From an uncultured Gammaproteobacteria bacterium (GTDB taxonomy: Bacteria; Patescibacteriota; Patescibacteriia; UBA9934), in NCBI GenBank assembly GCA_964569575.1, contig CAZMTL010000005.1, positions 9,053-73,052 on the forward strand: a DNA stretch of 64,000 nucleotides. The letters run 5' to 3'. Positions within the stretch are counted from its first letter, which is position 1; the number at the start of each line of letters is the position of its first letter. This document shows positions 39-26,718 of this stretch, one piece after another. The notes under the pieces were generated by a model. It had not been told where the DNA came from. It saw only the letters and a list, made by a program, of their open reading frames with translations, and made no database searches. The position numbers were made by a program, and so were the translations under genes.

Positions 39-112
39 TTCGATTGTTTCCACAGCTTGTCGATTTTAAATTGAGTAACTGTGATAAAATAGATGCATCA
101 CTAACCGTCATC

Positions 113-1915
113 ATGCTTGGACGACGTTTGTTTTATCGGATCGGATGCGCACTTACATTCATTGCTGCGGTAGCAATGGTCTTTTTTGTTCCCGATGTTT
201 TTGCGCAGACCGGAATTGAAGAAGTTGGGAATGCTGCGGGCATTAATACAGGTCGAGATTTATTTTCGATTATTGGGACGGTGATCAATGTCTTCTTTAG
301 CATTCTTGGAATCATCTTTTTGTTACTTGTGTTGTACGCGGGATTCCTTTGGATGACGGCTGCAGGTAATCCAGATTCGGTCGACAAGGCGAAGCGTGTG
401 TTGATTCAGGCGGTTGTTGGGCTGGTTATTACATTGAGTGCATTCGCGATTACGACGTTTATTTTAGGAGTGCTGAACCGAGCTGGATTGATTGGAGGAG
501 ATGGCAACGGTTTGAATAATGGCATTGAGTCGCTTTCTGGTTCGCTTGGTGCTGGCGCGATTCGTGATCACTATCCTCCTCGGTTTGGAATCGATATTCC
601 TCGTAACACGAAGATATTTGTTACGTTTAAGGAAGCGATGGATATTGCTTCCTTTATAGAAGGGTACAGTACAGCCGGTACGCCATTGGATGTTTCGGAC
701 GATTCTTTGGAAACAGCGTTGAATGTAGATAATATTCTTATTTATGTTACAGCGGATGGGGAGGGTGAGGCGCTCGAAACTAGTGAAGTGACAGTTGCAT
801 TTACCGAAGATTTGAAAACATTTGTCTTTGATCCTCCTGTGCTTGGTTCGCCGAATCAGGATGTGAATTATACGGTCTACTTGTCAGATTCGATTCGAAC
901 AGCGAATGGTGACGCTCCGATTAACTTGGGTGGCTATCAATGGACGTTTACGGTTGGAACTGAATTGGATGTGACTCCACCTGTCGTGACATCAGTGACG
1001 CCGTTTCCTGCTGGAACGTATGATCGTAACATTGTCGTTCAAGTTGATTTTTCGGAAGCGATTGATCCGACAGCTTCAACCGGAACGACGGCGCAAGGAT
1101 TTGAAAATATTCAAGCCCTTTCGCAGGGCACCCCTGTTGCTGGAAGTTACTTGATTAGTAATGGGTATCGAACGATTACATTCCAGAGTTCCTCGGTCTG
1201 CGGAACAAATTCGTGCGGTGAAACATTGTACTGCTTGCCGGGTAATGCGGATATCGAAACGATTGTGTATGCAGCTACTCCGGGAACCGAACCTCCTCAG
1301 GCCGTTTCGTTCCCGTATGACGGTATTGTTGATGTGGTTGGAAATTCGCTTGATGGAGACGGTGACTGGGGACAGGAGGGTGGAGAAGTTGGGGATGATT
1401 ACGCGTGGCAATTTTCGACCACAAATGACATTAATTTGTCTGCGCCCGAGATTGAAACTGTTTTACCAAGCGTACTGCAGGAAGATATTGCGCTCGATGC
1501 CCCTGTGGAAGCGATTTTTGGATGTAGCGAGAGTTCGAATCCAAATACCTGTGACTCTGTTTTGATGAGTTCGACTGTTTCTTCTGAATTTATCTCGCTG
1601 AGTTCCGGTTCGGATCACGAGCTGTGGTACAGGGTTACGCGCGAAAATTTGGATGCAGATGGCGTGCCGGTGAATTCGACAACGATTCCTTCGAAAACGC
1701 GCGTGGTTGTTCCGCATGGAATTTTCCTTGAATCGGTTGATGACGACAATCAGCTTTATCAGCTTACGATGACTGAACAGCTAAAAAATCAATACCAAAA
1801 TTGTTTTGCGCCGGCAGAAGGACCGAATGCTGTTGGTGGTCGGTGTGGTACGACCGAAAGTCAACCATATTGCTGCAATGGTATTGCTAGCGCTAATGAA
1901 TGTGCTCAGATCTAA
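113..1915 (+). CDS. Surface protein with N-terminal VirB2/TrbC-like two-TM pilin hairpin (LYAGFLWMTAAGNPDSVDKAKR) fused to SbsA-type Ig-like (Big_5) domains and a Cys-rich C-terminus
   Basis: ORF track 44..1915 trimmed to the first ATG (113) preceding a signal/TM segment; hydrophobic-loop-hydrophobic hairpin matching the T4SS pilin-like family abundant in CPR genomes; repeated 'P..g.t.v..n..i.v.Fse.id' motifs. Confidence 0.75.
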   Translation: MLGRRLFYRIGCALTFIAAVAMVFFVPDVFAQTGIEEVGNAAGINTGRDLFSIIGTVINVFFSILGIIFLLLVLYAGFLWMTAAGNPDSVDKAKRVLIQAVVGLVITLSAFAITTFILGVLNRAGLIGGDGNGLNNGIESLSGSLGAGAIRDHYPPRFGIDIPRNTKIFVTFKEAMDIASFIEGYSTAGTPLDVSDDSLETALNVDNILIYVTADGEGEALETSEVTVAFTEDLKTFVFDPPVLGSPNQDVNYTVYLSDSIRTANGDAPINLGGYQWTFTVGTELDVTPPVVTSVTPFPAGTYDRNIVVQVDFSEAIDPTASTGTTAQGFENIQALSQGTPVAGSYLISNGYRTITFQSSSVCGTNSCGETLYCLPGNADIETIVYAATPGTEPPQAVSFPYDGIVDVVGNSLDGDGDWGQEGGEVGDDYAWQFSTTNDINLSAPEIETVLPSVLQEDIALDAPVEAIFGCSESSNPNTCDSVLMSSTVSSEFISLSSGSDHELWYRVTRENLDADGVPVNSTTIPSKTRVVVPHGIFLESVDDDNQLYQLTMTEQLKNQYQNCFAPAEGPNAVGGRCGTTESQPYCCNGIASANECAQI

Positions 1916-10900: not shown

Positions 10901-11150
10901 GGAAGAGTTGCGTGACATGTATGAATCGATTGTGAATTCAATCTTGAATATCACTGTTTCACTTACACATCAGGGAGAAACGATGTCAGTGACTCTGCCT
11001 GCGGGGTCGAATACACAGTTGGCGATTCCGGGAGCGTTTGCGTGTAATGGATTAACTGAACAGTCGATGACAATTAAAGCGTCCTTTGTTGATACGGGTG
11101 AAGGAACGGTTCAGTTGAGTGGTGGAGAAATTGATATGTGTCGTCCTTAA
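1917..11150 (+). CDS. Giant (about 3077 aa) pilin-domain fusion adhesin. Domain order: signal/TM, VirB2/TrbC-like hairpin (VIYAGFLWMTAAGNSEQVDKAKR), Gly/Asp linker, Big_5 Ig-like domains, IPT/TIG repeats (about nt 3190-4300), a Cys-rich repeat array (5731-6300), a second Cys-rich region (8620-9980), and a C-terminal von Willebrand factor A domain with MIDAS DESRS (about 10160-10760)
   Basis: ORF track 1806..11150; ATG at 1917 directly precedes the signal peptide MSSFFRSIFTLLFSAILFGGFWVLPVNAQ, 1 nt after the upstream stop; motifs read from the translation (GxYVTVTGSGF repeats, CGNGVVExGEDCDDGNxxxGDGCSxxC repeats, DESRSM...IIVIFSDGN). Confidence 0.85.
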   Translation: MSSFFRSIFTLLFSAILFGGFWVLPVNAQVADQVNDSLTVVGEGSGLSNQDLPTTIAKIINVVISLSGIILLVLVIYAGFLWMTAAGNSEQVDKAKRILVQAVIGLIIVFASFAITQFVISSLSNATGLQDGGSGGDDDDDGGGLGGSGSTSFTVAGVVPQGEVLIRNIVVQATFSRVVDESSVNNNSFQVVRVSDQEEVDGDLIVLGNRISFTPDQTCPDPNGDRFCFDENTAYEIRLTGDLESTNGRNLTTCANGCSYLFTSGSVVDVENPTVRFTVPAANERVSVNEVVPVQVFATDDYAVAGSDFAVDQAFFDSVGVPGVQTEVAIDSAWDTTTPVATVENTSYTLLSQVRDLAGNTATAQRSVRATPAHCFNGVVDSGATPPEEGLDCGGVCGACNGGACTENDQCSSGACLNGTCQSIPVISDVSPRDGAPGTYVTVTGSGFESVAGIVYFSDGSGGLVPSAVTACGEGWSATEIIVAVPEGAVDGPLTLQTNSGLEDTTNNDTGAFIEDFDVNTLERPSICRLAPNSSPSGSFVDVIGVNFGTTEAAVLFEGAQTVEARTYASWSDSEIELTVPSVRVGLHDVFVRVGGIESNKVQFNASEILSNAPVLATVAPASGGAGQYVTFSGSNFGTATGLVYFENVLTGVKTIADTNFPAVCAEGFWRADEVVVKVPDVDEGAYFVSVERGTDGADSNTLDFLVTNAAPTPGICSVSPARGLEGADVVISGENFGSQQGRALFYNEVSAINPVWGTSQISVTVPDGTSTGPLVIENAAGVQGNSVLFELGETDGDVDDAGAVAQYSWTFSTGQIPIAPSVVQACNENTISAVPNAVFSQNVCVNALVVAEFDTLMRHQTITNQTILLERCDSASCASASAVGATVSASSSADRTAFSLQINQGNGRLSPSTTYRVTVSDLVQSLDGTPMNQPFSWTFTTSTSSEDCDVEEVRVSPTRQTLSVLDQQAEYRALPVFGDCQVLVAEDYSWQWSVDESVASIDDTCDEILDGSCATVSALAEGEAVVTASSIDSGISGTGDLVVQFTDPFVQSFWPACSLACVNAQVGASFNIPVLAATVERSGAVALYECSNEFCTDLTLVSENADCVDGSDGCEGFTVRVNQLLRTSTYYRVVVSGDVQSQSGVPLTRLNYGEDYSWTFLTRADAQECAVARVDLSPGNAQVEVVGATQRFTATPFGEADACSVAGQRLNAYGYSWDWTNPIDSSSQSDDNIASWVTLGGELFDANPSSIPAGCSSACTAVGSFPLFAICGNNVVETGEDCDDGNTTGGDGCSSMCLNEGVVGGVCGNTVLDAGEECDDGNSTNGDGCSDMCLREGSQASGLTCGDGIVSRDTRYGGEDCDDGNKKGGDGCSAVCLNEGSQSISTVAAACGNGVVETPYETCDDGNGVSGDGCSNRCLREGISATVATGFICGNGVTERLPSGGGEDCDGGEGCSVTCRFEGSSTDYSTPSVCGDGIAGIGELAMCEAGYSGDGFDDPVQLAVIDGDAAQFVDESGLATQSIEVTLAPVTATANLQLSCSANSDADCPVGFGADQNGCCSERPTITAFPNGANACLNSAIYVTSNREMDLASFDDAAYVVYEGASCPQNHTTLALYRAVHKNWFARAWISIQTFFVRGANAQVSGDCVVPVERFVQSKVSDTEYRISFITNTLLEAGAPYAIVLEAGAEGVTTSTGVALANEVRQSFSTGSEICRLSQVEIVDETGVVPGLFRSLSETHDMIALPYAVLNGVRSEIQPVQGVYSWNWLPWQEDSGATLFSVQNQTTTPDRASVSTLGENGEATLVAQAQIIENSAPTGVVVDDTLRLRALLCENPWPSADLFPFEDSQAGFDRGIPNLLQTPDWMNFETYYCRDTSTEGALLPSLNIVSSTDTTSAGVIKEYFFAVGASRDVIGIRVVANPQYLSPSDWYTAQGFTGTASEEQVDGFEAVRSGRTIYVAAPNVSNVGTAMYSNIYAISYNEDASAQTQQIFEQLLDNWNFAIALEDVRLCQEGGVYTSTVCSADVECSATAGAVCGSEKAKITRDTKRLADITTISRQLSAYAVQNRFCSQTTGLSCLSNADCPGTELCVDTYPQLDAGTFVRSIDSSAWPSWNEVLGTQIGAIPSDPLNRYNACGEGTAYGDHDAATCVNQTTGVYLCPENSYAYHYRSVGANAFELSAELEYVGTGAQAWVNAIDPVAGDQRTIRVGNANPNSGAGFSSAQAFCSNASYGGSDICGDGIVGPNEVCEVGQAGAMNTCDLNGDGAADSVRPTVCNASCTGFVETAGADADVCASFACGNGVIEQGEACDDGALNGQYGYCSSTCSGAGFFCGDGRIAGGESCDCGLDGSGVSASGGACSSPNGVYGSNLNNTCAWDCGGSAAFCGDSIIQAGEQCDGNVETWAGAVCRTGANMGDACTTDADCGGGVCGGSRPTNACPTSRVCLDGPQEGYGCTADVQCPGSTCSVFTVQTARTKTCADNGLAGDSCSWVGGDTFIGKDCRAAVSCGNGVVDAGEQCDDGNDVNTDACTNSCIANVCGDGIVQAGVEQCDLGTQNGQQCSSAYQSSCNYCSPTCTLLASSGAFCGDGVRNGGEFCDAGDLQYYWYSASTRTVRNDVATCLATQVGQTVTVAGVQYACTNIGACNGGVNNADLCSSNAQCGGGGSCVFPQCDLSCGSSCPLTLTPASVQFLDNQVGAVRSGTVDLLSASETLDAVLLGDPNAATAYIPACRVADDFIIDISGTNRSYPDVEVMFVLDESRSMTSSLGGQPRLQVLNDAVNDAIDALFDGYLGRSATMSIGLSSFGGSHFVPNTNRTEVRDMLVLSTRDAASRNRAEVKAAANLVLTQAIMNPEGTPLYEAIRDARDGFTDDPDSHKIIVIFSDGNVYNPQAEYASFQSHLATPYDQGGTMDAPKYMAEVSDLIDLYKSPAGGDIEVFTAILSSGACNAQQMQRWSSMTCTAQPRGCAPISAEGNHSCVVPPNGVNYAYQASTAEELRDMYESIVNSILNITVSLTHQGETMSVTLPAGSNTQLAIPGAFACNGLTEQSMTIKASFVDTGEGTVQLSGGEIDMCRP
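5731..6300 (+). repeat. In-frame tandem DNA repeats (about 96-108 nt period, 5-6 copies) encoding myxo-type cysteine-rich repeats (C-G-N/D-G-x-V-E-x-G-E-x-C-D-D-G-N-x3-G-D-G-C-S-x2-C)
   Basis: Recurring 'gaggattgtgatgatggaaa...ggtgacggctgttcg...tgtttg' units visible at nucleotide level. Confidence 0.8.
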
Positions 11151-11151
11151 T

Positions 11152-12036
11152 ATGCAAGATTCGCAAGAACAACTACAGCCGGTGGAGTGGGTTGAGGTAA
11201 ATCCAAATCCTCAACCCAAGCCCAAGGCTCCAAAAGAACTTTCACCTGCGCTCCGTATTGTTATTTTTGTTGTTGGATTGATTGTGTGTTTGGGATTGGT
11301 TGCGCTATTGGTTGTTTCGATCGTGCGAACGGTTTTTGAAACAGATAATCGACAAACACAAGAGCAGATGCGCCAAGATGTTGCCGAGGCGGTGTTGATT
11401 TGTGATGACGCAGAAGATCGTGAGGGATGCGTGGAGCAGGTGAGTGTGCAGCTTGCGCAAGAACGAGGAGACGTTTCGTATTGTTTTTTGCTCGACCAGG
11501 GATTGCGAGACGACTGTGTTTTGAATGCTGCTATCTCGCTGAATGATCGCGGGATGTGTTCGCAGATGCAGGATGAAGCTCGTCGAGAACGGTGTGAAGA
11601 CGGATTATTTGTAAGTGCATTCGGATCGGATGCGCCGATCGAGATGTGTGATCGCTATCATGCTTCTGAACTGCGCGATAGTTGTATTGCTGTTCGAGTT
11701 CAGAATGCATTGCTTGCGGGCGAGTGTCCGGAACAAGCGACCGAAAGTGATTGCGCTGACTACGAGGTGATTCGCCGTGCGATTGCTGCTCGAGATGAAT
11801 CGATGTGTTTTGCGTTAGTGACGGATTCGTCGGAAGAAATGTGTCTTGGTCTTGTGAGTGAAGCTGTGTATCAATTTGAATTATCTGCCGAAGAAGGGAC
11901 TGTGGATACGGATGGGGATGGATTAACTGACGCCGAAGAGCGTTTACTTGGAACGAATCCGGCGTTGGTTGATACTGATGGTGATGGATTTAGTGATGGC
12001 GAAGAAGTTCGGAATGGCTTCGATCCTCTAAATTAG
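11152..12036 (+). CDS. Single-pass membrane protein with paired-Cys repeats and C-terminal thrombospondin type-3-like Ca-binding repeats (DTDGDGLTDAEE...DTDGDGFSDGEE)
   Basis: ORF track 11119..12036 trimmed to the ATG at 11152 (1 nt after the giant gene's stop); TM helix ALRIVIFVVGLIVCLGLVALLVVSIV; D-x-D-x-D-G-x-x-D-x-x-E motifs. Confidence 0.75.
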   Translation: MQDSQEQLQPVEWVEVNPNPQPKPKAPKELSPALRIVIFVVGLIVCLGLVALLVVSIVRTVFETDNRQTQEQMRQDVAEAVLICDDAEDREGCVEQVSVQLAQERGDVSYCFLLDQGLRDDCVLNAAISLNDRGMCSQMQDEARRERCEDGLFVSAFGSDAPIEMCDRYHASELRDSCIAVRVQNALLAGECPEQATESDCADYEVIRRAIAARDESMCFALVTDSSEEMCLGLVSEAVYQFELSAEEGTVDTDGDGLTDAEERLLGTNPALVDTDGDGFSDGEEVRNGFDPLN

Positions 12037-12080
12037 GTATCATATGAATAAATAGGATAGCTTCAATTACTTACGTTTCT

Positions 12081-12839
12081 ATGTTTGACGATCAACAATC
12101 ACAACCAACTCCAAAACCCCCAACGCCTCAGCAGCCTGTCGAGGATATGTTTGCTTCAACGGATGCTGTTGCTTCGGCTCCGGCGATGACCGCTTCGGTA
12201 GAGCAGGGCGGTGCCCCGATGAATTTACCAACCGCTCCTCCGGTAGAAGAACGTCAGATGCCTGTTCAGGCTCCAGTTACGCCTATGGCTCCTATGCCTG
12301 CGCCGGTTATGCCTTCGGACCGCATGAAGCCTCAGCCGACGATGGCGCCACCTTCGGCTGCTCGAACTCGACCTCCGGGTTCACGCGGGGGCGCGTTTAA
12401 AGTGATTTTTATTATTCTTGTTTCGCTCATTATTATTGCTATTGCTCTTTTCCTTGCCTACGCATTGGTGGTGGCGCCGAAGAGCGGTGACGTTGTGGAT
12501 TCGCTCGAGGATGATTCGTTGGTTGAAGATGATGTTGTCGTCGAGGACGAACCTGAGGTTCCGGTTATTGAAGAGGACCCAGTTGTAGTAGCGCCAATCG
12601 ATACAGACGGAGATGGATTAACAGATGCGGAAGAAGCTGCGGCGGGCACGTCGCCGTTGCGAGCGGATACGGATAGTGATGGATTGGGTGATCGAGAAGA
12701 AGTGAAAGTGTACGGAACAGACCCACTTGACGCAGATACGGATAAGGATGGGTATACGGATGGTGAAGAGGTGAGTTCGGGATATAACCCAAATGGACCA
12801 GGAAAGCTATTTGAAGTTCCGCAGGATATTAAAGAATAG
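12081..12839 (+). CDS. Pro-rich single-pass membrane protein with C-terminal TSP3-like Ca-binding repeats (paralog of the previous gene)
   Basis: TM helix FKVIFIILVSLIIIAIALFLAYALVVA; DTDGDGLTDAEE / DTDSDGLGDREE / DTDKDGYTDGEE. Confidence 0.75.
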   Translation: MFDDQQSQPTPKPPTPQQPVEDMFASTDAVASAPAMTASVEQGGAPMNLPTAPPVEERQMPVQAPVTPMAPMPAPVMPSDRMKPQPTMAPPSAARTRPPGSRGGAFKVIFIILVSLIIIAIALFLAYALVVAPKSGDVVDSLEDDSLVEDDVVVEDEPEVPVIEEDPVVVAPIDTDGDGLTDAEEAAAGTSPLRADTDSDGLGDREEVKVYGTDPLDADTDKDGYTDGEEVSSGYNPNGPGKLFEVPQDIKE

Positions 12840-12844
12840 TTGGT

Positions 12845-13813
12845 ATGGCACGTCGGAAGGAGGAGCGAAATTCGGCAAAGGTAACACAAAAGGAGTCAGA
12901 TTCTTTTGATTCTGTTGTATTTAAAGTGATGCCGAAGGAATTTTTAGGTGAAGGCGTTGAGCGTGTAGCGCCAGTTGAGGCGAAGTCTGTCCCGAAGCCT
13001 GTTCCTGCGCCTGTTGTTGTACCGCCCGCGCCAGTGCAGCCGACGATCACGAAGCCGGTTGCTATAAAGAAAAACAAGCGACGAGGTCCTGTTTTGTTAA
13101 TTGTATTCGGGCTACTCTTTCTGCTTGGACTTTCTGCGGCAGCGGTAGTATTACTTACTATTCTTTCGGAAGAAGATCCTGAGCCAATTGTGCCGGTTGT
13201 AGAAGACCCTGTTGTTATTCCTCCTGTGATTGAAGATCCTGTCGAGGAAGAGCCTTCGATTACGCAGGGAATCGATACGGATAGTGATGGTTTAACGGAT
13301 AGGGAAGAGGCATTGTACGGTACGGATGCACGCAATCCTGATACGGATGGTGATACATTTTTGGATGGAAATGAAGTGTTTCATCGGTATGATCCGCTTG
13401 GGTTTGCTCCATCTACGTTGCTTGATACGGGAAGTGTGGTTGAATATCGATCGGAAGTTGGCGGATACGCGCTTACCTATCCTCGCCAATGGAGCCTGAC
13501 GAGCACGGAAGGTGCTGGTATTACTTTGCGGGCGCAGACGGGTGCTACGATTGGGGTGATTGATTATGGTAAATCAGCCGAACAAGCGTTTTCTGCCTGG
13601 CTGGGTGAGGTCTATCCACAGATAGTATCGACGGACTTAAAGCAGGGGCTGACAAAGGCGGGATATGTTAGTTACACTACTGACGACCAGCGAACGGCTT
13701 TTCTGGTATTTGATTCGCGTGTTGTTGTGTTTACGTATACGCTTGGGAATAGTTTGGTGATAGACTATCTACAGACGTTCCAGATGATGGTGAATAGCTT
13801 CTTTTTAGAATAA
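12845..13813 (+). CDS. Single-pass membrane protein with central TSP3-like Ca-binding repeats and a C-terminal globular domain (third paralog)
   Basis: TM helix VLLIVFGLLFLLGLSAAAVVLLTIL; DTDSDGLTDREE...DTDGDTFLDGNE. Confidence 0.75.
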   Translation: MARRKEERNSAKVTQKESDSFDSVVFKVMPKEFLGEGVERVAPVEAKSVPKPVPAPVVVPPAPVQPTITKPVAIKKNKRRGPVLLIVFGLLFLLGLSAAAVVLLTILSEEDPEPIVPVVEDPVVIPPVIEDPVEEEPSITQGIDTDSDGLTDREEALYGTDARNPDTDGDTFLDGNEVFHRYDPLGFAPSTLLDTGSVVEYRSEVGGYALTYPRQWSLTSTEGAGITLRAQTGATIGVIDYGKSAEQAFSAWLGEVYPQIVSTDLKQGLTKAGYVSYTTDDQRTAFLVFDSRVVVFTYTLGNSLVIDYLQTFQMMVNSFFLE

Positions 13814-13817
13814 GTGC

Positions 13818-14243
13818 ATGATTACCCTCGATGTTGATCAATCCGGACTCCCTGCAGACTCTGTTCTTTCAGATACGCTTTTGGCGTTGGTGGCAAAAGA
13901 ACTAAACGCTCGTATTCCTTCAGTGCCAGAGGGGTTGGTTGCGGTTGGGTTTATTTCGGATACGGAAATGCAGGAGCTCAACTTAAAGTATCGCAATAAG
14001 GATAAGACGACGGATGTGTTGTCGTTTTCGTATATGGACGATGAGCGGTCGGAGACATTGGGCGATGTGGTGATTTCGTTTGAGCAGGTAAAGAGACAGC
14101 AGGAAGATGGAGTTGAACAGGAGATTGTGATGTTGATTATTCACGGGGTGCTTCATGTGATTGGGTACGATCACGAAGAAGACGCTGATGCAAAGGAAAT
14201 GTTTCCACTGCAAGACGGAATTTATGACGCTGTATATGAATAG
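13818..14243 (+). CDS. ybeY: Endoribonuclease YbeY (rRNA maturation factor)
   Basis: Conserved HGVLHVIGYDHEED zinc-binding motif (H-x3-H-x-x-G-x-D-H); size 141 aa. Confidence 0.9.
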   Translation: MITLDVDQSGLPADSVLSDTLLALVAKELNARIPSVPEGLVAVGFISDTEMQELNLKYRNKDKTTDVLSFSYMDDERSETLGDVVISFEQVKRQQEDGVEQEIVMLIIHGVLHVIGYDHEEDADAKEMFPLQDGIYDAVYE

Positions 14244-14622
14244 ACATCAATCGTTTTTTTCTAGTTTTAAACATGCGTTTCGTGGGTTGAAGTTAGTCGC
14301 AGTGCACGAGCGTAACTTTCGTATTCAGCTGTTTGTTGGTGCAGTAATTTTTGTGTTCATGACTATTTTGCCCTTGGCGCACTGGGAACGAATTTTGTTA
14401 GTGTTGTTGATTTCTGCGGTATTAGTGCTCGAGATTTTGAACACGTCCATTGAGCGGATTTCGGATTTACTTAAGCCTCGGTTGCATTCGGTGGTGAAGG
14501 ACGTAAAGGATATGACCGCAGGGGCAGTGTTGATTATGGCGATCACCTCAGTGGTTGTTGCTGTGATGATTTTTCGGACGTATGTGGTGGATTTATTCAC
14601 TTCAAATTTTCCAGGACTCTAA
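14224..14622 (+). CDS. dgkA: Diacylglycerol / undecaprenol kinase family protein (DgkA)
   Basis: Three TM helices and the E-I-L-N-T-S-I-E motif; start ambiguous (ATG at 14224 or 14236, both overlap the ybeY end); typical ybeY-dgkA synteny. Confidence 0.75.
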   Translation: MTLYMNRHQSFFSSFKHAFRGLKLVAVHERNFRIQLFVGAVIFVFMTILPLAHWERILLVLLISAVLVLEILNTSIERISDLLKPRLHSVVKDVKDMTAGAVLIMAITSVVVAVMIFRTYVVDLFTSNFPGL

Positions 14623-14625
14623 TCT

Positions 14626-14631
14626 TTCGGT
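14626..14631 (+). promoter_or_regulatory. Candidate -10 hexamer TATAAT 16 nt upstream of the ftsA start (TTTCCA -35 at 17-nt spacing)
   Basis: Sequence 'tttccaggactctaatctttcggtataatagg' immediately upstream of ftsA. Confidence 0.35.
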
Positions 14632-14646
14632 ATAATAGGATTACGT

Positions 14647-15900
14647 ATGGCAGAAGAAATAATCACAGGTCTGGATGTTGGTTCCTCGCATGTGCGGGTT
14701 GTCGTCGGTCAGGCAATGCCTTCCGAAGACGGGAAGCCAAAATTGCATGTTATCGGTGCTGTCGAGTCGCCTTCAGAAGGCATCCACAAGGGTGCTATTT
14801 CGAGCATGGATGATGCTGTTTCTTCGATTTCAAAAGCACTCGAAAAGGCGGAGCGCATGACAGGCGTTGCCGTAAATGCAGCCTGGGCTTCGATTGCTGG
14901 TCAAAATATTTTGGTTCAAGAAAGTAGGGGGGTAGTTGGAGCAAGTAAGCCGGACGGTGAGATTACGGAAGATGATGTTAATCGTGCGATTGAAGCGGCG
15001 CGTACGGTTGCTACTCCTTCAAATTACGAAGTTCTCCATGTATTGCCGAAAAGTTTTACGGTAGATGGTCAAAAAGGAATCAAGGATCCTGTTGGAATGA
15101 ATGGGATTCGTTTGGAAGTGGATGCCGTGATCATTCAAACGCTTTCTTCGCAGGTGAAGAATTTAACCAAAAGTATTTATCGTACAGGGCTTGATATAGA
15201 AGATTTGGTTTTTTCTCCTCTTGCAACGGCGGAAGCGGTGCTGACTCAACGTCAGAAAGAGTTGGGTGTGTGCGTGATTGATATTGGCGCGACCACGACA
15301 ACGATGGCTGTGTTTGAAGAAGGGGATATTTTGCACGTTGCTGTACTGCCAATTGGTGGGGATCATGTAACGAGCGATGTCGCGATTGCGCTTCGGACTT
15401 CCCTCGAAGTGGCGGAACAGGTGAAGTTACTTGTGGGTAATGCCGTCCCTGATCAGATTGATCGCAAGAATCCTTATTCGTTAAAAGAGTTTGGAGGCAG
15501 TGAGGATGAGCCTGTGAAGCCAAAGTTTATTGCCGAAGTGATCGAAGCTCGGGCCGAAGAGTTGTTCGAAACGATCGATGACGAGCTGCGCAAAATTGAT
15601 CGCTCGGGTATGTTGCCGGTTGGTGTTGTGTTGACCGGTGGAGGAGTGAAGTTACCGGGAATGTTGGAGGTAGCGAAGCGAGTGCTTCGATTGCCTGCAA
15701 CCATTGGTTCAGCCGAAACAGTAAGTAGTGTAGTGGACGAAGCGCGTGATCCTTCTTTTGCTACGGCTGTTGGATTAGCACTATGGGGGTTTACCGTGAG
15801 TGCGAATGTGCAGAAAAAATTCAGTTTCAATATTAAGTTTAAAGGGGTCGATCAGATTACGGATCAGCTAAGGAAGTTTATCAAGTCGATCATTCCGTAA
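14647..15900 (+). CDS. ftsA: Cell division protein FtsA (actin-like ATPase)
   Basis: Actin-fold motifs (ITGLDVGSSHVRVVVGQ; VIDIGATTTTMAVF); directly upstream of ftsZ. Confidence 0.9.
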   Translation: MAEEIITGLDVGSSHVRVVVGQAMPSEDGKPKLHVIGAVESPSEGIHKGAISSMDDAVSSISKALEKAERMTGVAVNAAWASIAGQNILVQESRGVVGASKPDGEITEDDVNRAIEAARTVATPSNYEVLHVLPKSFTVDGQKGIKDPVGMNGIRLEVDAVIIQTLSSQVKNLTKSIYRTGLDIEDLVFSPLATAEAVLTQRQKELGVCVIDIGATTTTMAVFEEGDILHVAVLPIGGDHVTSDVAIALRTSLEVAEQVKLLVGNAVPDQIDRKNPYSLKEFGGSEDEPVKPKFIAEVIEARAEELFETIDDELRKIDRSGMLPVGVVLTGGGVKLPGMLEVAKRVLRLPATIGSAETVSSVVDEARDPSFATAVGLALWGFTVSANVQKKFSFNIKFKGVDQITDQLRKFIKSIIP

Positions 15901-16089: not shown

Positions 16090-17385
16090 ATGGCTCAAAT
16101 CAAACCCGAAATCGAAACGTTTGCGAAGATCAAAGTATTGGGAGTTGGAGGAGGTGGTGGCTCTGCTCTTATTCGCATGATCAACGAAAAATTGCGGGGT
16201 ATTGATTTTGTGGCGGTAAATACCGATGTGCAGGCATTGCATCAGAACTTGGCCGAACACAAGATTTCGATCGGGAAGACGGTTACTCGAGGATTGGGTG
16301 CTGGAATGAATCCAGAACTTGGTCGCCGGGCGGCGGAAGAAAGTGCGAACGATATTCGTAACGCGATTGCCGGTGCGGACATGGTTTTTTTGACAGGTGG
16401 ATTAGGTGGAGGAACTGGAAGCGGAGCCTTGCCTGAAATTGCGAAAATCGCTCGCGAATCTGGTTGTTTAACAGTTGCGGTCGTAACAAAACCATTTTCT
16501 TTCGAAGGCGCACAGCGAAAGCGTATTGCAGAAGAAGCATTCGCGGAACTTTCGAGTCATGTGGATACTATTATCACAATTCCAAACGACCGAGTTCTTC
16601 AGATTATTGATAAAAAAACATCACTTCTCGATGCGTTTCAGATTGTGGATGACGTACTTCGGCAGGGTGTTCAGGGAATTTCAGAAATTATTACTTTGCC
16701 AGGGTTGATCAACGTTGACTTTGCCGACGTAAAAGCGATTATGCAGAACGCGGGTTCGGCGTTGATGGGAATTGGTTCTGCTTCGGGCGAAAATCGTGCG
16801 GTAGATGCGGCTAAGATGGCGATCGCGAGTCCATTGTTGGAGCTTGCGATTGATGGCGCGAAAGGAATTTTGTTTACTGTAACTGGAAGTGCGGATTTAG
16901 CGATGTATGAAGTGGCGGAAGCTGCGAAGGTGATTACTGGTTCGGCGGATGACGACGCGAAAGTGATCTTTGGTGCAAATATTGATGAAAATTTGAGCGA
17001 TGAGGTGCGTATTACGGTGGTTGCTACTGGATTTGAAGGGCGCGAACGTCGTTCTGCTCCGGGATTGGCTGGAGATATGGAAATTAATTCTTCTGGAAGT
17101 TGGAGTCGGCCTGTGCGAAAAGAGCAGCCAGGATTTTCGGCAAATCCAATGCGGTCTGAACGCATGGATTCGCGACCGGAACGGATGGACTCGCGAGAAG
17201 AATCACCTTTCGAGCAGCGACGCGTGAGCGCAATGGATTCGTATCGCGATCGCGAAGATCGTCACCAGTCTGCGCCACAGGCTCCACAAGCGCCTCAGCA
17301 GCCGCCGCAGGTGCAAAAGCCGTCTAAGCAGGATGATGACGACGATCTAGGTATTCCTGCCTTTATTCGACGAAAAATGATGTAA
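16090..17385 (+). CDS. ftsZ: Cell division GTPase FtsZ with a long disordered C-terminal linker (SERMDSRPERMDSRE repeats) and a conserved C-terminal peptide DDDLGIPAFIRRKMM
   Basis: Tubulin signature GGGTGSG; VGGGGG Walker-like N-terminus. Confidence 0.95.
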   Translation: MAQIKPEIETFAKIKVLGVGGGGGSALIRMINEKLRGIDFVAVNTDVQALHQNLAEHKISIGKTVTRGLGAGMNPELGRRAAEESANDIRNAIAGADMVFLTGGLGGGTGSGALPEIAKIARESGCLTVAVVTKPFSFEGAQRKRIAEEAFAELSSHVDTIITIPNDRVLQIIDKKTSLLDAFQIVDDVLRQGVQGISEIITLPGLINVDFADVKAIMQNAGSALMGIGSASGENRAVDAAKMAIASPLLELAIDGAKGILFTVTGSADLAMYEVAEAAKVITGSADDDAKVIFGANIDENLSDEVRITVVATGFEGRERRSAPGLAGDMEINSSGSWSRPVRKEQPGFSANPMRSERMDSRPERMDSREESPFEQRRVSAMDSYRDREDRHQSAPQAPQAPQQPPQVQKPSKQDDDDDLGIPAFIRRKMM

Positions 17386-22381: not shown

Positions 22382-24370
22382 CTATTTTTCAAACTTGTTA
22401 AACAGGGTTGGGTCGATGTCCATTACTTTTGTGGCCCAGTCATTTCCGAAGCGTTGTCGAGCAACTTCTTCGGATGGAATATATTCTAACGCTTCACGCA
22501 CGTTTCCGGCAATAACTAGATACGTTTCTGGTTTGCTTTGAATTTTTACGAGCGTTCCTGCTTTTGGTAGCACGGGCATTCCGAGCGGGATCGTTGGAAG
22601 TGTTGCGTCGGTAACGATTTTGATATTGTCGAAGTTTGCGAATCGAGTGAAGTAAATGGCTTCGTTCATGAATGGCCGACGCGTTCCGTTTTCGATTAGG
22701 TAGACGGTGTCGTAGTTTTGGCCTCGAATCAACTGTGCGCCCGTGATGTCGGTGATTAGCTCGATGTTTCCTGTGAACGGTGATGGTCCTGTTGTAGGTG
22801 ATTCGGTTGATTCCTCTTCGTCCACTTCTTCTTCGATCACTTCGTTTTCACATTCAAACGACAGTTGTTCGCTTGCACTTGTTGAGGTGATTGATCCGCT
22901 TGTGTTTCGCAGGGCGAGGTAGACCGTTGTAGTGGATTGTTTGATCTGAAAATTCCACGACTTTGTGATACTTTCTGCCGTTAATTCTTGCCATGTCGCA
23001 TTTGAAAAATCTGCATTGTTCGAAAGAATGTATTCAGTTGCCCCGGCTGATTGAATGTTTACTTCACCTGTCAGGCTTCCAGAATCGCACGAATAGGCGA
23101 GGGAGTGGATTGAGAGAGAGGCTGTCGTGATCGGTGTTGCACTTGTTTCGGAAGACGAACTTCGTTTTACCGAGAAATTCCAGGTGGTTTCGTTGTTGAT
23201 TCCTGGGAATATTCCACCGCCGTCAACAGCGAATGCTCCGCTGTCGATTTGAATGTAGACATCTTCGCCGTTTGGTAATTGGCCTGGCTCGATGGTGATG
23301 GTTTCGGTTCCTGATCCGCTTACGCGATTGCTTTCAACATCGATTGTTGAAAAAAGTACGTCGTTGTTTGTGCGGTAGATGTAGATGTTTCCGGTTCCTG
23401 TGATGACGTCCTGGTCGAAGGTGATTTCTAGATCTGCACTTCGTAGTACGTCAACTTCGTTATCTGTTGGAGAGAGAGTTACGATTTCTGGTGCTTCGAA
23501 TGCGGTGAGGGAGAATTCTGCTCCAGCAGTTTCGGGCATATCTCCGTCTGCTCCGAACTCGACGACGTATCCAGGAAGCATACTTGTAGCACAGCCGAGG
23601 TCATTCCATTCGCCGCTTTGTAATCCACCCGAGAGGAACTGCGCGCAGTCTTCGCTGCTACTGCTGTCGTTTGGTTCGTTTTCGTTCCAGTTTTCGTATT
23701 CCCCAGGCACAACAGCTCCAAATTGATCACCTACCCAGAATAGGTCACCTGTTTCTGGTCCGGTCACCCAGCGCCATTCGTCTTCCACGGCGGCGTCGCT
23801 TGCACCCATCCATCCAGCTCCGCCAAGTCGAGCGGCGACGAAGTCATTTTCTTCCTGTGAAGTGATGGTGGTGAGATATCCTGTGGCTCCATAGCGTTCA
23901 AGTCCTGCCGCGGCGATCTGAGCATTGTTCCAGTTGATGTTTCCTGGCACGGAAATATATTCGTACAAATGTCCATTTCCGGAAAAGAATACTTCGCCTT
24001 CTTCTACGAGCGATACTTCTAATGTGTCGGCGCCGGTTGAGTCGGCTGTGTAGAGAAGTGTTGCGAGTGCTGCGTTTACATCTTCGACATCGCCTGAAAA
24101 GTAGAGTTCTGCTCCAGTTTCTGGACCGGTAAACGTGAGTCCGGTTGTTGTTGTCATTTCGAGCGTTCCGTTGCTTACGAGTAATTTTACCGGAATGACT
24201 CCTACGGCATTAAGAACTTCGATGCCTGTTAAAAGGATAGGTAGGTCGACTGTTGCTGTTTGGTTGTCGTCGCCGATGACTTCTAATTCACCGTCAGCAT
24301 AAGTTGGCTGAATGTGCAGCAGGGAAGTTGCAAGCACGCTGATTAATAACGCGCCAAGAATCTTTTTCAT
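22382..24370 (-). CDS. Secreted C-type lectin domain protein (CTLD with EPN and WND motifs) plus a C-terminal domain shared with the 1679-aa protein
   Basis: ORF 22382..24397 trimmed to MKKILGALLISVLATSLLHIQPTYA (signal peptide); CTLD motifs WNNAQ...C, ITSQEENDFV, GWMGASD...EDEWRWV, WNENEPN, EDCAQF, GEWNDLGC. Confidence 0.85.
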   Translation of the reverse strand: MKKILGALLISVLATSLLHIQPTYADGELEVIGDDNQTATVDLPILLTGIEVLNAVGVIPVKLLVSNGTLEMTTTTGLTFTGPETGAELYFSGDVEDVNAALATLLYTADSTGADTLEVSLVEEGEVFFSGNGHLYEYISVPGNINWNNAQIAAAGLERYGATGYLTTITSQEENDFVAARLGGAGWMGASDAAVEDEWRWVTGPETGDLFWVGDQFGAVVPGEYENWNENEPNDSSSSEDCAQFLSGGLQSGEWNDLGCATSMLPGYVVEFGADGDMPETAGAEFSLTAFEAPEIVTLSPTDNEVDVLRSADLEITFDQDVITGTGNIYIYRTNNDVLFSTIDVESNRVSGSGTETITIEPGQLPNGEDVYIQIDSGAFAVDGGGIFPGINNETTWNFSVKRSSSSETSATPITTASLSIHSLAYSCDSGSLTGEVNIQSAGATEYILSNNADFSNATWQELTAESITKSWNFQIKQSTTTVYLALRNTSGSITSTSASEQLSFECENEVIEEEVDEEESTESPTTGPSPFTGNIELITDITGAQLIRGQNYDTVYLIENGTRRPFMNEAIYFTRFANFDNIKIVTDATLPTIPLGMPVLPKAGTLVKIQSKPETYLVIAGNVREALEYIPSEEVARQRFGNDWATKVMDIDPTLFNKFEK

Positions 24371-24480
24371 ACGAAAAATAAAGTAATATTGGCTCAATTA
24401 TAACACGGACGCACGGATTATTTTTTGTTTGGAAGTGTGGGTGTTGATAGGTTTTGTGGGGAGGGTTGAAAATGAAAAAA

Positions 24481-24505: not shown

Positions 24506-24581
24506 TGGCGGGCTGGACGGGACTCGAACCCGCAACTTCCGCCGTGACAGGGCGGTGCTCTAACCATTGAACTACCAGCCC
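24506..24581 (-). tRNA. tRNA-Asp (anticodon GUC), CCA encoded
   Basis: Minus-strand read GGGCUGG-UA-GUUC-AAUGGUUA-GAGC-A-CCGCC-CU-GUC-AC-GGCGG-AAGUU-GCGGG-UUCGAGU-CCCGU-CCAGCCC-G-CCA folds as a cloverleaf. Confidence 0.9.
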
Positions 24582-24728: not shown

Positions 24729-25964
24729 TCAGAAGGTGGTGAACGTCGGGCAGTTGGCGCCGGACGGGAAGCAGGCCTTGGTGAGAGCGATGTTGTCGCT
24801 TCCGTTCACCCAGGTGCAGCTTCCGTCATCGTTGCGGTTGAACGTGCCGTGGAGCTGGTAGACCGTGCCGGTCTTCAGTGCCGTTTCGTTTGGAACCGTG
24901 ATGGTGAGCGAGTCGTGCACAATGATTGCGGACAGGTCCTCGACGGTGCACTTGACCGGTTCGCTGTTCGCTGTCGCCGTATCTGACTGCGGCATCGTTC
25001 CCGTTTGCGTCATTGCGATGGTTGTCGGTTGACTGGTTGTTGCGACCGTCGGTTCCTGCGGTGGCATGGTGACAGTGCGCTTGGGCATGATTCCTTCAAT
25101 AGGAAGCTCTGCCCGGACTACGCGTTGCGCAGTTGGCCGGATTTCGCTTTCGCCCACGTTCCAGTTCGAGATCATCACCACCGTCATGGTGAGAGCCAGA
25201 ATTCCGCTCATCGTGAAGAGTGCCGCGAGTACGCTTGCGATTCCGATCGTTGGGATGAACCAGCCGCGCAGTTGCGTTCGCTCGGTTTCTTCTTCGTCCT
25301 CTTCCGTTTCCTGAGAGGCCCTGAAGAACTCGTCCTCGAAGTCCTTGGTCGTCAGTGGCTCTCCTCGTGCGTCGGTCGGTGCCGTGTTTGTAGTAGCGCC
25401 TTCCTTGGCTTTTTCGAACCACGGAGTTTCGGTGACTTCGTTGAACGGGTCGCCGGTGTCTTCGGCGGGCTTCTTCTTGAAGAGGGTTGTCGCAGGCACG
25501 CCCTCTTCTACCACCAGCCCTGCGAGAGGGTCTCCCTCGTCGAAGCTGTCGAGATCGCCTGGAGGGAGATCGGGCAGGCCTTCATCGTTGAAGGTAGTGG
25601 CAGCGTGGTCGCGAAGACGCATGATGCCAGTATCCCCTTCTTTGAACGTGAGGTAGCCGTCCTCGGGAACGATGGTGTCGGCGCTGTCCCTCGTGCGTCC
25701 ATTGCCGGAGCTGAGTACACGGGTGGCTGCACCTGGGTGGGTAGAGAGCTCCGCAGCCGCTTCTTTGGCCGGAGCCGTTGTTGCCGCTTCCGCTGCCTTG
25801 GCTTCCCCCGCTGTCTTTGCCGCTGCGCGCTCTTTCATGTTCTTGAGGTGTTCTTCTGCGGTCGGTCGCTCTCCTTCGATTTCTTTGCAGGCCGCGACGA
25901 GATTCTTGAAGTCCTCGCAGGACTGGTCGATGCGGGCCGAGCTGTCTGGCGTGTCCTTACCCAT
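24729..25964 (-). CDS. Hypothetical single-pass membrane protein (acidic, Ala/Glu-rich cytoplasmic N-domain; extracytoplasmic Cys-containing C-domain) in a high-GC island
   Basis: ORF 24729..26267 trimmed to the ATG at 25964 with a GGAG SD; GC3 about 85% over the first 13 codons; TM helix GWFIPTIGIASVLAALFTMSGILALTMTVV. Confidence 0.6.
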   Translation of the reverse strand: MGKDTPDSSARIDQSCEDFKNLVAACKEIEGERPTAEEHLKNMKERAAAKTAGEAKAAEAATTAPAKEAAAELSTHPGAATRVLSSGNGRTRDSADTIVPEDGYLTFKEGDTGIMRLRDHAATTFNDEGLPDLPPGDLDSFDEGDPLAGLVVEEGVPATTLFKKKPAEDTGDPFNEVTETPWFEKAKEGATTNTAPTDARGEPLTTKDFEDEFFRASQETEEDEEETERTQLRGWFIPTIGIASVLAALFTMSGILALTMTVVMISNWNVGESEIRPTAQRVVRAELPIEGIMPKRTVTMPPQEPTVATTSQPTTIAMTQTGTMPQSDTATANSEPVKCTVEDLSAIIVHDSLTITVPNETALKTGTVYQLHGTFNRNDDGSCTWVNGSDNIALTKACFPSGANCPTFTTF

Positions 25965-26124
25965 GCTGTCTCCAGATGCTGATTGGTGAAAGATCGAGGT
26001 TGAATATTTCAAACATAGATGTCTGAACTGACGGATAGTACAGGAAATACCAAGAATGTCAATAAATACAAAGCGATCCCCAGCGCCGAAGCGGTGGGGA
26101 TCTCGATTTCGCCTGGCGCTGCGC

Positions 26125-26718
26125 TTATCGCGCGGCCAGGCAGGTGTTGGGCATGTCGCCCGTCTCGCCCGGGGTGGGCTGACGAGCGACATTGCACCAA
26201 CGCGCGGGGCACTGGTCGGTGGCCCCGAAGATGCGCGTGAAGCCCTCGTGGGCCAGCGCACCTTCACCGATGGTCTTGAGGTCGAGGCAGTTGGCCTCGA
26301 CCGCCTTCTTGATCGTGGATGGCTTGCCGTCCACGGTGGGGGTGAAGTGCATCTCGCCGTTGGCGGAGCACTCCACGTCGCGGAGGCTCCAAGCCTGTCC
26401 GCTCCAGGTGAAGGCCACGACGCCGTTGACGGGCATCGTGGCGGGGGCGAGGCAGCTGATGAGCTGCTCGTTCTCGTTCGGCGTCACCGTCTCCCCGACC
26501 ACCTGGGTGGTGGTCGGGGAGACGGCAGGGGGCCACATCATCCACGCAGCGCTCGTGAGAGCGAGGAGGATGAGGCCGATGCCCAGCAGGCTGAGGAGGC
26601 TGATGCCCCCGCACCCGATGGTCGTCGGCCACCACGAGCGCGTCGCGCGTCGCGGGGGCGGCGTGGGGCGACCCGGGAAGGGGGCGTCCGTGGGGTCCTG
26701 GTTGGGTTCGATCGCCAT
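26125..26718 (-). CDS. Hypothetical single-pass membrane protein (Pro-rich cytoplasmic N-terminus, TM helix, Cys-containing ectodomain) in a high-GC island
   Basis: ATG at 26718 with a GGAG SD; high GC3; a perfect TTGACA -35 at 26812-26817 on the minus strand. Confidence 0.6.
   Translation of the reverse strand: MAIEPNQDPTDAPFPGRPTPPPRRATRSWWPTTIGCGGISLLSLLGIGLILLALTSAAWMMWPPAVSPTTTQVVGETVTPNENEQLISCLAPATMPVNGVVAFTWSGQAWSLRDVECSANGEMHFTPTVDGKPSTIKKAVEANCLDLKTIGEGALAHEGFTRIFGATDQCPARWCNVARQPTPGETGDMPNTCLAAR

Follow-up and report, generated by a model that had tools for sequence, protein, structure and literature searches.

Three adjacent membrane-anchored proteins with thrombospondin type 3 repeats as a candidate calcium-dependent scaffold beside a giant pilin-anchored surface protein in Uhrbacteria-like Patescibacteria

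Life in attachment to host cells is assumed for the Patescibacteria, also known as the candidate phyla radiation (CPR). How these organisms fix and arrange their large surface proteins in the envelope is, outside the Saccharibacteria, almost unknown. Among envelope modules described in other bacteria, the thrombospondin type 3 (TSP3) repeats of the Bacteroidota (PF18884) form tandem calcium loops of the type D-x-D-x-D-G-x-x-D-x-x-E in OmpA-like proteins, an occurrence named in a preliminary description of the DNA treated here and reflected by many matches combining OmpA and TSP3 regions in our homologue search. Equally, the CglD protein of Myxococcus possesses a COMP/TSP3-type calcium-binding domain, which works together with VWA adhesins in a calcium-dependent function (bioRxiv 10.1101/2023.10.19.562135). 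A survey of the type IV secretion system (T4SS) in Patescibacteria has treated VirB2-like pilins and not the neighbouring genes considered here (PMC12102498), and no description of such a module was found in the literature on TSP3 or PF18884 in Patescibacteria or on giant and pilin genes of Uhrbacteria. The present analysis addresses a stretch of 64 kb (the window) which, by its gene content, is a core chromosomal region of a member of the Patescibacteria, Uhrbacteria-like by the nearest relatives of the proteins studied. Immediately downstream of a gene for a giant surface protein with a VirB2-like pilin domain, the window encodes three consecutive bitopic proteins with TSP3 repeats, designated P1, P2 and P3, which are tentatively considered to be a calcium-dependent scaffold or anchor at the membrane.

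Across the six reading frames of the 64 kb, the strict motif D.D.DG..[DN]..E turns up six times, on each occasion inside one of the three genes, with two copies in P1, three in P2 and one in P3, the second copy of P3 being degenerate (DTDGDTFLDGNEV). The two to three copies per protein that had been announced beforehand are thus found in P1 and P2, while P3 has one full and one degenerate copy. Scored against the 22-residue repeat family TSP3_bac (PF18884), P1 (60.1 bits, E 1.8e-16, two stretches) and P2 (67.7 bits, E 7.5e-19, three stretches) pass the gathering cut-off of 25 bits, whereas P3 with 20.2 bits (E 5e-4) stays below it, so that the Pfam check succeeds for two of the three proteins. 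By these scores the repeats of P1 and P2 belong to the bacterial TSP3 family, with P3 a borderline case. The first repeat of P3 is a complete DxDxDGxxDxxE loop, in which D144, D146, D148, G149, E154 and E155 are invariant among 21 orthologues, and from the motif the repeats of all three proteins are predicted to bind Ca2+. Each protein contains one strongly hydrophobic segment (Table 1), flanked in all three by basic residues on the N-terminal and acidic residues on the C-terminal side and modelled by AlphaFold as a long helix. On account of hydropathy, flanking charges, the modelled transmembrane (TM) helices and the 12 conserved cysteines in the C-terminal part of P1, a single-pass topology with the N-terminus inside and the C-terminus, including the repeats, outside is predicted. 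The earlier statement of three consecutive genes on one strand, each with a single TM helix and an N-terminal region inside the cell, agrees with the open reading frames (ORFs), the hydropathy and the charges, as far as prediction goes.

Four blocks of P3 are conserved in an alignment of 21 sequences, starting with the cytoplasmic V-I-H-V-M-P-K-E-F-x-G and a Pro-rich, basic stretch ahead of the TM helix, followed by an acidic, Pro-containing linker into an invariant TSP3 pair (DTDSDGLTD.EE.LYGTD.RNPDTDGDTFLDGNEVFHRYDPLG) and by the C-terminal domain, which ends in Y-L-Q-T-F-Q-M-M-x-N-S. All lineages retain the cytoplasmic motif, written h-x-[VTN]-[MI]-P-x-x-[FY], and it occurs once in the window. 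In the form [IV]-H-[VT]-[MI]-P-[KR]-[ED]-[FY] it is conserved in P3 proteins of lineages with a guanine-cytosine (GC) content of 29-64% and is located at the same position in the L083-L119 orthologues (loci are cited by their L numbers). As a lead only, I-H-V-M-P resembles what we take to be the conserved N-terminal motif of PilN. The C-terminal domain is modelled with a predicted local distance difference test score (pLDDT) above 90 across residues 190-322. A Foldseek search against the PDB matched it to PsbP/CyanoP and Mog1 structures (E 2.6e-5 to 2e-3, probability 1.0), with PsbP/CyanoP as the best match (E 2.6e-5) and Tsi3, SciW/Eag (E 0.03-0.09, weaker than PsbP) and Apa as further ones. 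As modelled, the C-terminal domain of P3 is a PsbP/Mog1 superfold. In sequence comparisons, P3 remains below the gathering score of the PsbP families (PF01789 and PF18933; 13 bits versus 23.5 for PF01789), weak PsbP matches are seen in 7 of 20 members of the P3 family (best E 0.0017), and a P3 profile run against the PDB had CyanoP (2xb3) as its first match with E 0.44. Members of a deep branch are longer, 420-470 residues (L062:9398-10720, L068:3772-5175, L073:9422-10798, L076:10193-11590, L078:9299-10573), and contain additionally a fibronectin-III-like insert between TM helix and TSP3 repeats and a C-terminal tail rich in Pro, Ser and Thr.

The N-terminal motif of P2 recurs in low-GC lineages, and its C-terminal end, GYNPNGPGKL, is kept as GYNPNGxGKL in the alignment. 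P2 proteins begin with M-F-[DN] and have a second motif, [ED]-D-[IM]-[FY]-A, located about 20-45 residues in (L083:4423, L085:1782, L086:572); a start with MF[DEN] is also common among P3 proteins. Within the window, similarity among the three proteins is confined to the TSP3 block (BLASTP E 4e-13 and 1e-13). In the deep relatives L062 and L077, the protein in the P2 slot, recognised by an MFD/EPEDIF N-terminus, also carries a PsbP-like domain and aligns with P3 over 229 residues at E 4e-23, on which grounds P2 and P3 are, judged by alignment, true paralogues. Of the initially proposed kinship of all three, this pair is backed by the deep relatives, and the window itself adds the shared repeat block. 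Median identities of 41% for P3, 44% for P2, 44.6% for YbeY and 28% for P1 show that P2 and P3 diverge approximately as slowly as YbeY and P1 much faster; the slow divergence of P3 points to a constrained function.

P1 contains six cysteine pairs (84/93, 111/122, 136/148, 166/178, 192/201 and 219/231), which agrees in number with the six paired-cysteine repeats of the preliminary description; the period, 25-30 and on average about 27 residues, replaces the 20 residues given there. All 12 cysteines are conserved to at least 70%, and most to at least 90%, among 65 orthologues. As conserved cysteines fit an oxidising location outside the cell, the cysteine domain is predicted to be extracytoplasmic. 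The ectodomain is modelled as an all-alpha repeat, with no significant match in a fold search against the PDB (best E 0.68), and a conserved cytoplasmic motif was not found in P1. The homologue search with P1 was dominated by generic TSP3 proteins, with three true orthologues among the matches (P0130, P0133, P0137).

The giant protein combines a signal peptide with, according to Pfam, a T4SS_pilin anchor, Big_5/TIG/DUF4215 Cys-rich repeats and a C-terminal VWA domain with a DxSxS motif of the metal ion-dependent adhesion site type (MIDAS), 'LDESRSM'. With 34.0 bits for the giant and 32.2 bits for the 623-residue protein encoded upstream of it, both pass the gathering score of T4SS_pilin (PF18895, 26.6 bits). 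The tight spacing noticed beforehand is confirmed, with the giant stop at 11150 and the P1 ATG at 11152 separated by 1 nt and P2 and P3 by 5 nt; the remaining gaps are 44 nt between P1 and P2 and 4 nt between P3 and ybeY, and the start of dgkA overlaps the end of ybeY. An identical TAA-N-ATG arrangement with a 1-nt spacer is found at both junctions of the giant gene (1913-1919 and 11148-11154), suggesting from the sequence translational coupling along the 623-residue pilin-domain protein, the giant and P1. A consensus scan detected no terminator-like site in the junctions. The highest-ranking sigma-70-like site in the first 19.5 kb (14608-14636, TTTCCA-17-TATAAT, 10/12) lies in the 24-nt spacer between dgkA and ftsA and may mark the end of a unit extending from the giant to dgkA; overall, promoter-like sites are rarer than in shuffled sequence (13 versus 22). 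CPR promoters have, to our knowledge, not been characterised, which makes the scan for promoters and terminators weak evidence. Because of the common strand, the gaps of 1-44 nt and the lack of terminator-like sites in the junctions, P1 to P3 are probably co-transcribed with the pilin-fusion genes.

The conservation of this arrangement was followed through the P3 family, searched in a 90%-clustered database, with 80 species loci and further lineages obtained via P2-like matches and a metagenome scan. The latter used a generic TSP3 pattern, and approximately 20 of the 80 loci listed were true members of the P3 family, L092, L128, L139 and L161 being dropped as TSP3-only matches. Full-length P3 as a single sequence retrieved 630 matches, and the family is present in 186 species-representative genomes; a profile of 20 P3 C-terminal domains retrieved one protein from 5.8 billion sequences, a domain so short and divergent apparently escaping the word-index prefilter. 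The P3 family heads a hidden Markov model scan of 1.84 billion representatives, most of the top matches being single stretches of about 300-390 residues. The nearest relatives of P1, P2 and P3 are throughout annotated as Candidatus Uhrbacteria or 'Patescibacteria group'. With ORFs called in the 80 Uhrbacteria-like species loci and annotated by the proteins of the window, the order giant (2600-3100 residues), P1, P2, P3, YbeY, DgkA, FtsA, FtsZ, NrdR, PK is found in all 80, insertions being confined to the FtsA/FtsZ and NrdR/PK intervals. Median gaps amount to 3 nt (giant-P1), 23.5 nt (P1-P2), 6 nt (P2-P3) and, in 81 loci, -4 nt (P3-YbeY), ybeY overlapping P3 by the 4 nt ATGA in most relatives. 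Throughout the lineages of 29-64% GC, a large or pilin-domain protein is followed by an optional P1, by P2 starting with MF and by P3. Altogether 101 true P3 loci were counted, 72 of them with at least 3 kb of upstream and 94 with downstream sequence. A same-strand ORF of at least 700 residues lies within 1.8 kb upstream in 70 of the 72 loci and is slightly farther away in the other two, and this gene is positive for T4SS_pilin wherever its N-terminus is visible. Downstream, ftsA-ftsZ follows shortly wherever the contig reaches far enough, and P1 is missing or replaced in L083, L090, L099 and L119.

The lineage of L083, L084 and L088 departs from this order in an informative way. Here, an opposite-strand clpP comes after P3, then secD, secF, a Wzy-like gene and pilD, and ftsA-ftsZ is reached only about 7 kb downstream, so that the adjacency to ybeY is lost. 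The lineage keeps a pilin-domain protein of at least 901 residues, a second one of 1963 residues and a secreted 796-residue protein homologous to the middle of the giant of the window. The low-GC 'giant' is split in these loci into the 1963-residue T4SS_pilin protein and a protein of 796-804 residues with a signal peptide of its own (L084:1183-9476, L083:1496-3898; L088); P1 is replaced by a TM protein of 100 residues, and a 62-residue ORF lies between P2 and P3. Membrane-anchored TSP3 repeats, with the anchor at the N-terminus, also occur fused to a sortase-like catalytic domain (TLVTCWP motif) or are encoded beside a sortase (L129:1071-2096, L168:8001-9738, P0126), which suggests that TSP3 serves membrane proteins of the CPR as a general module outside the cytoplasm. 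In L085 (2-1027), the C-terminus of the large upstream protein contains eukaryote-style, Cys-bearing thrombospondin type 3 repeats (DNCPNTFNPDQKDIDNDGIGNMCDDC), whereas the repeats of the trio are free of cysteine. The co-occurrence with pilin-fusion genes proposed in the preliminary description stands with respect to the large upstream ORF in 72 of 72 loci and to the L083 lineage, and does not extend to the minimal TSP3 bitopic protein of L150, where no pilin gene is present. As a simpler TSP3 relative thus occurs without a pilin partner, the linkage to pilin-giant genes is supported for the module of P2 and P3, with or without P1, without being exclusive.

The reading that we place first, at slightly less than an even chance, is that the trio constitutes a calcium-dependent anchor or scaffold close to the membrane, expressed together with the giant surface protein, synteny suggesting an anchoring or assembly module for this adhesin. 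P1, P2 and P3 would be type II single-pass proteins of a monoderm cell, displaying short arrays of TSP3 Ca2+ loops just outside the cytoplasmic membrane. They would represent an ancient paralogous set with a common core of TM helix, acidic and Pro-containing linker, TSP3 pair and G-Y-N/D-P-x-G, to which a disulfide-stapled helical ectodomain in P1, the MFD...EDxF peptide in P2 and the IHVMPKEF peptide together with a PsbP/Mog1-like, protein-docking ectodomain in P3 would have been added. A single transcription unit would deliver the two surface proteins anchored by VirB2-like pilin domains, one of them giant, ahead of the trio and would continue into ybeY-dgkA. The Ca2+-stiffened scaffold would dock or organise the giant pilin-anchored protein at membrane and wall, presumably by contact with it, while the cytoplasmic peptides of P2 and P3 would tie the scaffold to a cytoplasmic partner. 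In its favour stand the TSP3 matches and their restriction to the three genes, the large and slowly diverging P3 family with its modelled PsbP-like domain, the undisturbed order from the giant to P3 and the L083 lineage with its retained pilin-giant neighbours. CglD of Myxococcus offers a precedent for COMP/TSP3-type calcium binding in concert with VWA adhesins, and the giant of the window ends in a VWA domain with a MIDAS.

Several observations weigh against this scaffold. The VWA domain of the giant is detectable in 36 loci only and in no low-GC lineage, which speaks against a contact of the TSP3 repeats with the VWA-MIDAS as a universal mechanism. It is situated at the C-terminal end of the giant, far from the N-terminal membrane anchor. 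As YbeY directly follows P3 in 90 of the 94 loci, synteny cannot part the trio from ybeY-dgkA-ftsA-ftsZ, and CPR genomes are compact, which makes tight spacing weak evidence. Furthermore, neither a pilin nor a giant gene accompanies the string rpsU, yqeY, a minimal 147-residue TSP3 bitopic protein, ybeY, dgkA, ftsA and ftsZ in L150, in L109 a canonical VirB2-like pilin of 136 residues alone precedes a 313-residue TSP3 bitopic protein and ybeY, and TSP3 bitopic modules stand fused to or beside sortases (L129, L168). The TSP3 repeat may consequently be a generic envelope module.

The main rival reading, less likely than the scaffold, is a general accessory role in envelope or cell division, with the trio working beside ybeY-dgkA-ftsA-ftsZ as calcium-dependent organisers of wall or membrane or, through the conserved cytoplasmic peptides, as FtsN/PilN-like bitopic partners of the actin-like FtsA, and with the giant as a mere conserved upstream neighbour. 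No junction is tighter than that of P3 and ybeY with its negative median, ybeY is almost invariably the next gene, and ftsA-ftsZ remains downstream even in the L083 lineage; L150 offers the TSP3 bitopic gene upstream of the division genes in the complete lack of a pilin, and sortases, near or fused to TSP3 modules, are wall-acting enzymes. The cytoplasmic motifs of P2 and P3, conserved across lineages of 29-64% GC and, for P3, found once in the window, have a precedent in the short cytoplasmic tails of bitopic proteins that bind the IA-IC cleft of FtsA or PilM (PMC7613929). However, the L083 lineage parts P3 from ybeY by the opposite-strand clpP, with five further genes ahead of ftsA, and yet retains the pilin-giant neighbours, a promoter-like site lies ahead of ftsA, and sequence similarity to FtsN, FtsQ/DivIB or PilN is lacking. 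Moreover, ybeY and dgkA are a housekeeping pair that is found in heterogeneous operons in other bacteria.

Scaffold and division apparatus could also be joined, in that P2 and P3 might serve as transmembrane couplers, with their cytoplasmic peptides on FtsA or another machine and their calcium-loaded TSP3 and PsbP-like ectodomains holding the giant. The docking would resemble that of FtsN on FtsA and of PilN on PilM. We consider this decidedly unlikely. If true, it would physically link the division or cytoskeletal apparatus to the main host-contact structure, and episymbiotic Patescibacteria would possess a connection from inside to outside of a kind not described before.

An assembly platform for a VirB2-like pilus, in which the trio would act as PilN/PilO-type alignment proteins for extracting pilin-domain proteins, the giant fusions included, from the membrane and for polymerising or displaying them, and the PsbP/Eag-like domain of P3 would shield the hydrophobic pilin hairpin, is highly improbable. 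The constant position of the trio beside T4SS_pilin-domain genes where the N-terminus is visible, the pilin directly upstream of the TSP3 bitopic gene in L109 and the Foldseek matches of the P3 domain to SciW/Eag chaperones, which bind TM helices of effectors, would agree with it. On the other hand, VirB4, VirB6 and other T4SS machinery genes were found neither in the window nor in the flanks of related loci, homology to PilN/PilO was not seen and, as a fold match, Eag ranks far behind PsbP. Machine-associated VirB2-like pilins of Patescibacteria cluster near virB4 (PMC12102498). The lack of any joint function, with three independent small envelope proteins frozen in position by the conserved gene order of streamlined CPR genomes, is very doubtful as well, as the synteny of the whole giant-to-pyk string across the clade and the fast, replaceable P1 are countered by insertions and rearrangements nearby (FtsA/FtsZ, NrdR/PK, loss of ybeY adjacency) with none within giant-P1-P2-P3, by the retention of the P2 and P3 pair over deep divergence and by paralogy and common architecture, which argue for related roles.

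Independently of the role, three families are defined, P3 with TSP3 and a PsbP-like domain, P2 with TSP3 and a cytoplasmic peptide and P1 with TSP3 and a Cys-stapled helical repeat. If the module anchors or positions the giant in a calcium-dependent manner, it would open the envelope architecture and the host attachment of an uncultured phylum to concrete tests, and thrombospondin-type calcium repeats would be seen on anchors of the cytoplasmic membrane instead of on outer-membrane proteins. If it belongs with the division genes, lineage-specific divisome accessories would be indicated.

Table 1. Features of the trio and its neighbouring genes in the window (nt, positions in the window; residues, positions in the respective protein).
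Feature	Position	Strand	Basis or remark
623-residue surface protein	44..1915	+	T4SS_pilin PF18895 E 1.1e-7 (membrane anchor); Big_5 PF13205 E 1.1e-8 (Ig-like)
Giant surface protein, ~3077 residues	1917..11150	+	ATG at 1917; ORF opens 1806
P1, 294 residues, bitopic	11152..12036	+	TM, Cys-helical domain, two TSP3 repeats
P1 TM helix	residues ~36-58, nt 11257-11325	+	hydropathy, AlphaFold
P1 Cys-stapled alpha-helical repeat domain (predicted)	residues 84-231, nt 11401-11844	+	Cys pattern, model
P1 two TSP3 repeats	residues 252, 274; nt 11905, 11971	+	motif, Pfam
P2, 252 residues, bitopic	12081..12839	+	TM, three TSP3 repeats
P2 N-terminal MFD	nt 12081-12089	+	conserved, cytoplasmic (predicted)
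P2 PVEDMFA (family E-P-x-x-D-x-F)	nt 12135-12155	+	second conserved cytoplasmic motif
P2 TM	residues ~106-130, nt 12396-12470	+	preceded by Pro-rich region, followed by acidic linker
P2 three TSP3 repeats	nt 12600, 12666, 12735	+	motif, Pfam
P3, 322 residues, bitopic	12845..13813	+	TM, two TSP3 repeats, PsbP/Mog1-like domain
P3 cytoplasmic motif FKVMPKEF	residues 26-33, nt 12920-12943	+	conserved; followed by Pro-rich, basic stretch
P3 TM	residues 83-106, nt 13091-13162	+	followed by acidic linker
P3 two TSP3 repeats	nt 13274, 13340	+	motif
P3 PsbP/Mog1-like C-terminal domain (predicted)	residues ~190-322, nt 13412-13810	+	AlphaFold, Foldseek
ybeY (endoribonuclease)	13818..14243	+	Pfam PF02130 E 3e-32
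dgkA (prokaryotic diacylglycerol kinase)	14224..14622	+	Pfam PF01219 E 5e-29; probable ATG 14224 or 14236
ftsA	14647-15900	+	Pfam; conserved downstream neighbour
ftsZ	16090-17385	+	Pfam; conserved downstream neighbour

Besides the genes of Table 1, the window contains nrdR, pyk, rpsB, tsf, glycolysis genes, ATP synthase, mreB and lexA; in addition, several genes for large surface proteins bear the T4SS_pilin (VirB2-like) domain typical of the CPR. Further envelope-type proteins are encoded on the minus strand: a 1679-residue ORF beside lexA (37874-42913) and a 512-residue ORF (24729-26267), both with no Pfam match, as well as a 671-residue protein with C-type lectin and Big_5 domains (22382-24397). 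The 512-residue ORF is located in a locally GC-rich patch (0.55) at 24-27 kb; an rRNA operon was ruled out for this patch, where Rfam gives only a tRNA-Asp (24509-24581). Over 1-64000, no 2-kb bin departs from a positive GC skew and the cumulative skew climbs monotonically, which, together with purine-rich coding strands and a bias of genes to the plus strand, fits a single replichore with origin and terminus outside the window.

Compared with known systems, the trio shares with the OmpA-like proteins of the Bacteroidota the calcium loop, while neither the C-terminal, peptidoglycan-binding OmpA domain PF00691 nor the beta-barrel PF13505, both of which occur among the Bacteroidota matches, is found at E <= 0.1, so that the proteins do not classify as OmpA-type TSP3 anchors. 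In contrast to the Bacteroidota type, the trio is predicted to sit in a monoderm's cytoplasmic membrane by an N-terminal signal-anchor helix, the repeats number only two to three, and a PsbP-like or Cys-helical ectodomain and conserved cytoplasmic peptides are added. CglD and MtsD likewise place TSP3/COMP repeats in an adhesion apparatus with a MIDAS-VWA. The NCBIfam matches of the trio to them are weak (E 1e-6 to 6e-8), and assignment to CglD (NF033765) or MtsD (NF047639) was rejected at 12-31 bits, in the repeat region only, versus cut-offs of 400 and 800. Besides, CglD belongs to a diderm, where it is a lipoprotein of the outer membrane, and combines 12 repeats with a VWA in one protein, whereas in the window repeats and VWA reside on separate proteins.

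The ectodomains and the cytoplasmic peptides lead to other relatives. PsbP is an extrinsic protein docking onto a membrane complex at its outer face, and the C-terminal domain of P3 is predicted to form the same alpha/beta sandwich as PsbP, CyanoP and Mog1, including the DcrB-, Tsi3- and Eag-type members. In distinction to PsbP, a TM helix and TSP3 repeats tether the P3 domain, the sequence match is sub-threshold and the organism does not photosynthesise. P1 resembles the cysteine-rich, Sel1-like proteins of Helicobacter in predicted alpha-helical repeats with one conserved cysteine pair per repeat; it was not assigned to Sel1/Hcp, given the lack of a Sel1 match in Pfam and of a fold match in the PDB and a period of about 27 instead of 36 residues. 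In layout, with a conserved peptide at the cytoplasmic N-terminus, a single TM helix and an ectodomain, P2 and P3 correspond to FtsN with its partner FtsA and to PilN with PilM, and ftsA lies two genes downstream, beyond ybeY and dgkA. Membership among PilN or FtsN was rejected with no match in Pfam or NCBIfam, and the trio differs from both in the folds of the ectodomains and in a longer cytoplasmic region of 80-100 residues. Against these systems, the TSP3 family itself is known, and what is new are TSP3 calcium-binding envelope proteins in a new architecture and in a strikingly conserved context.

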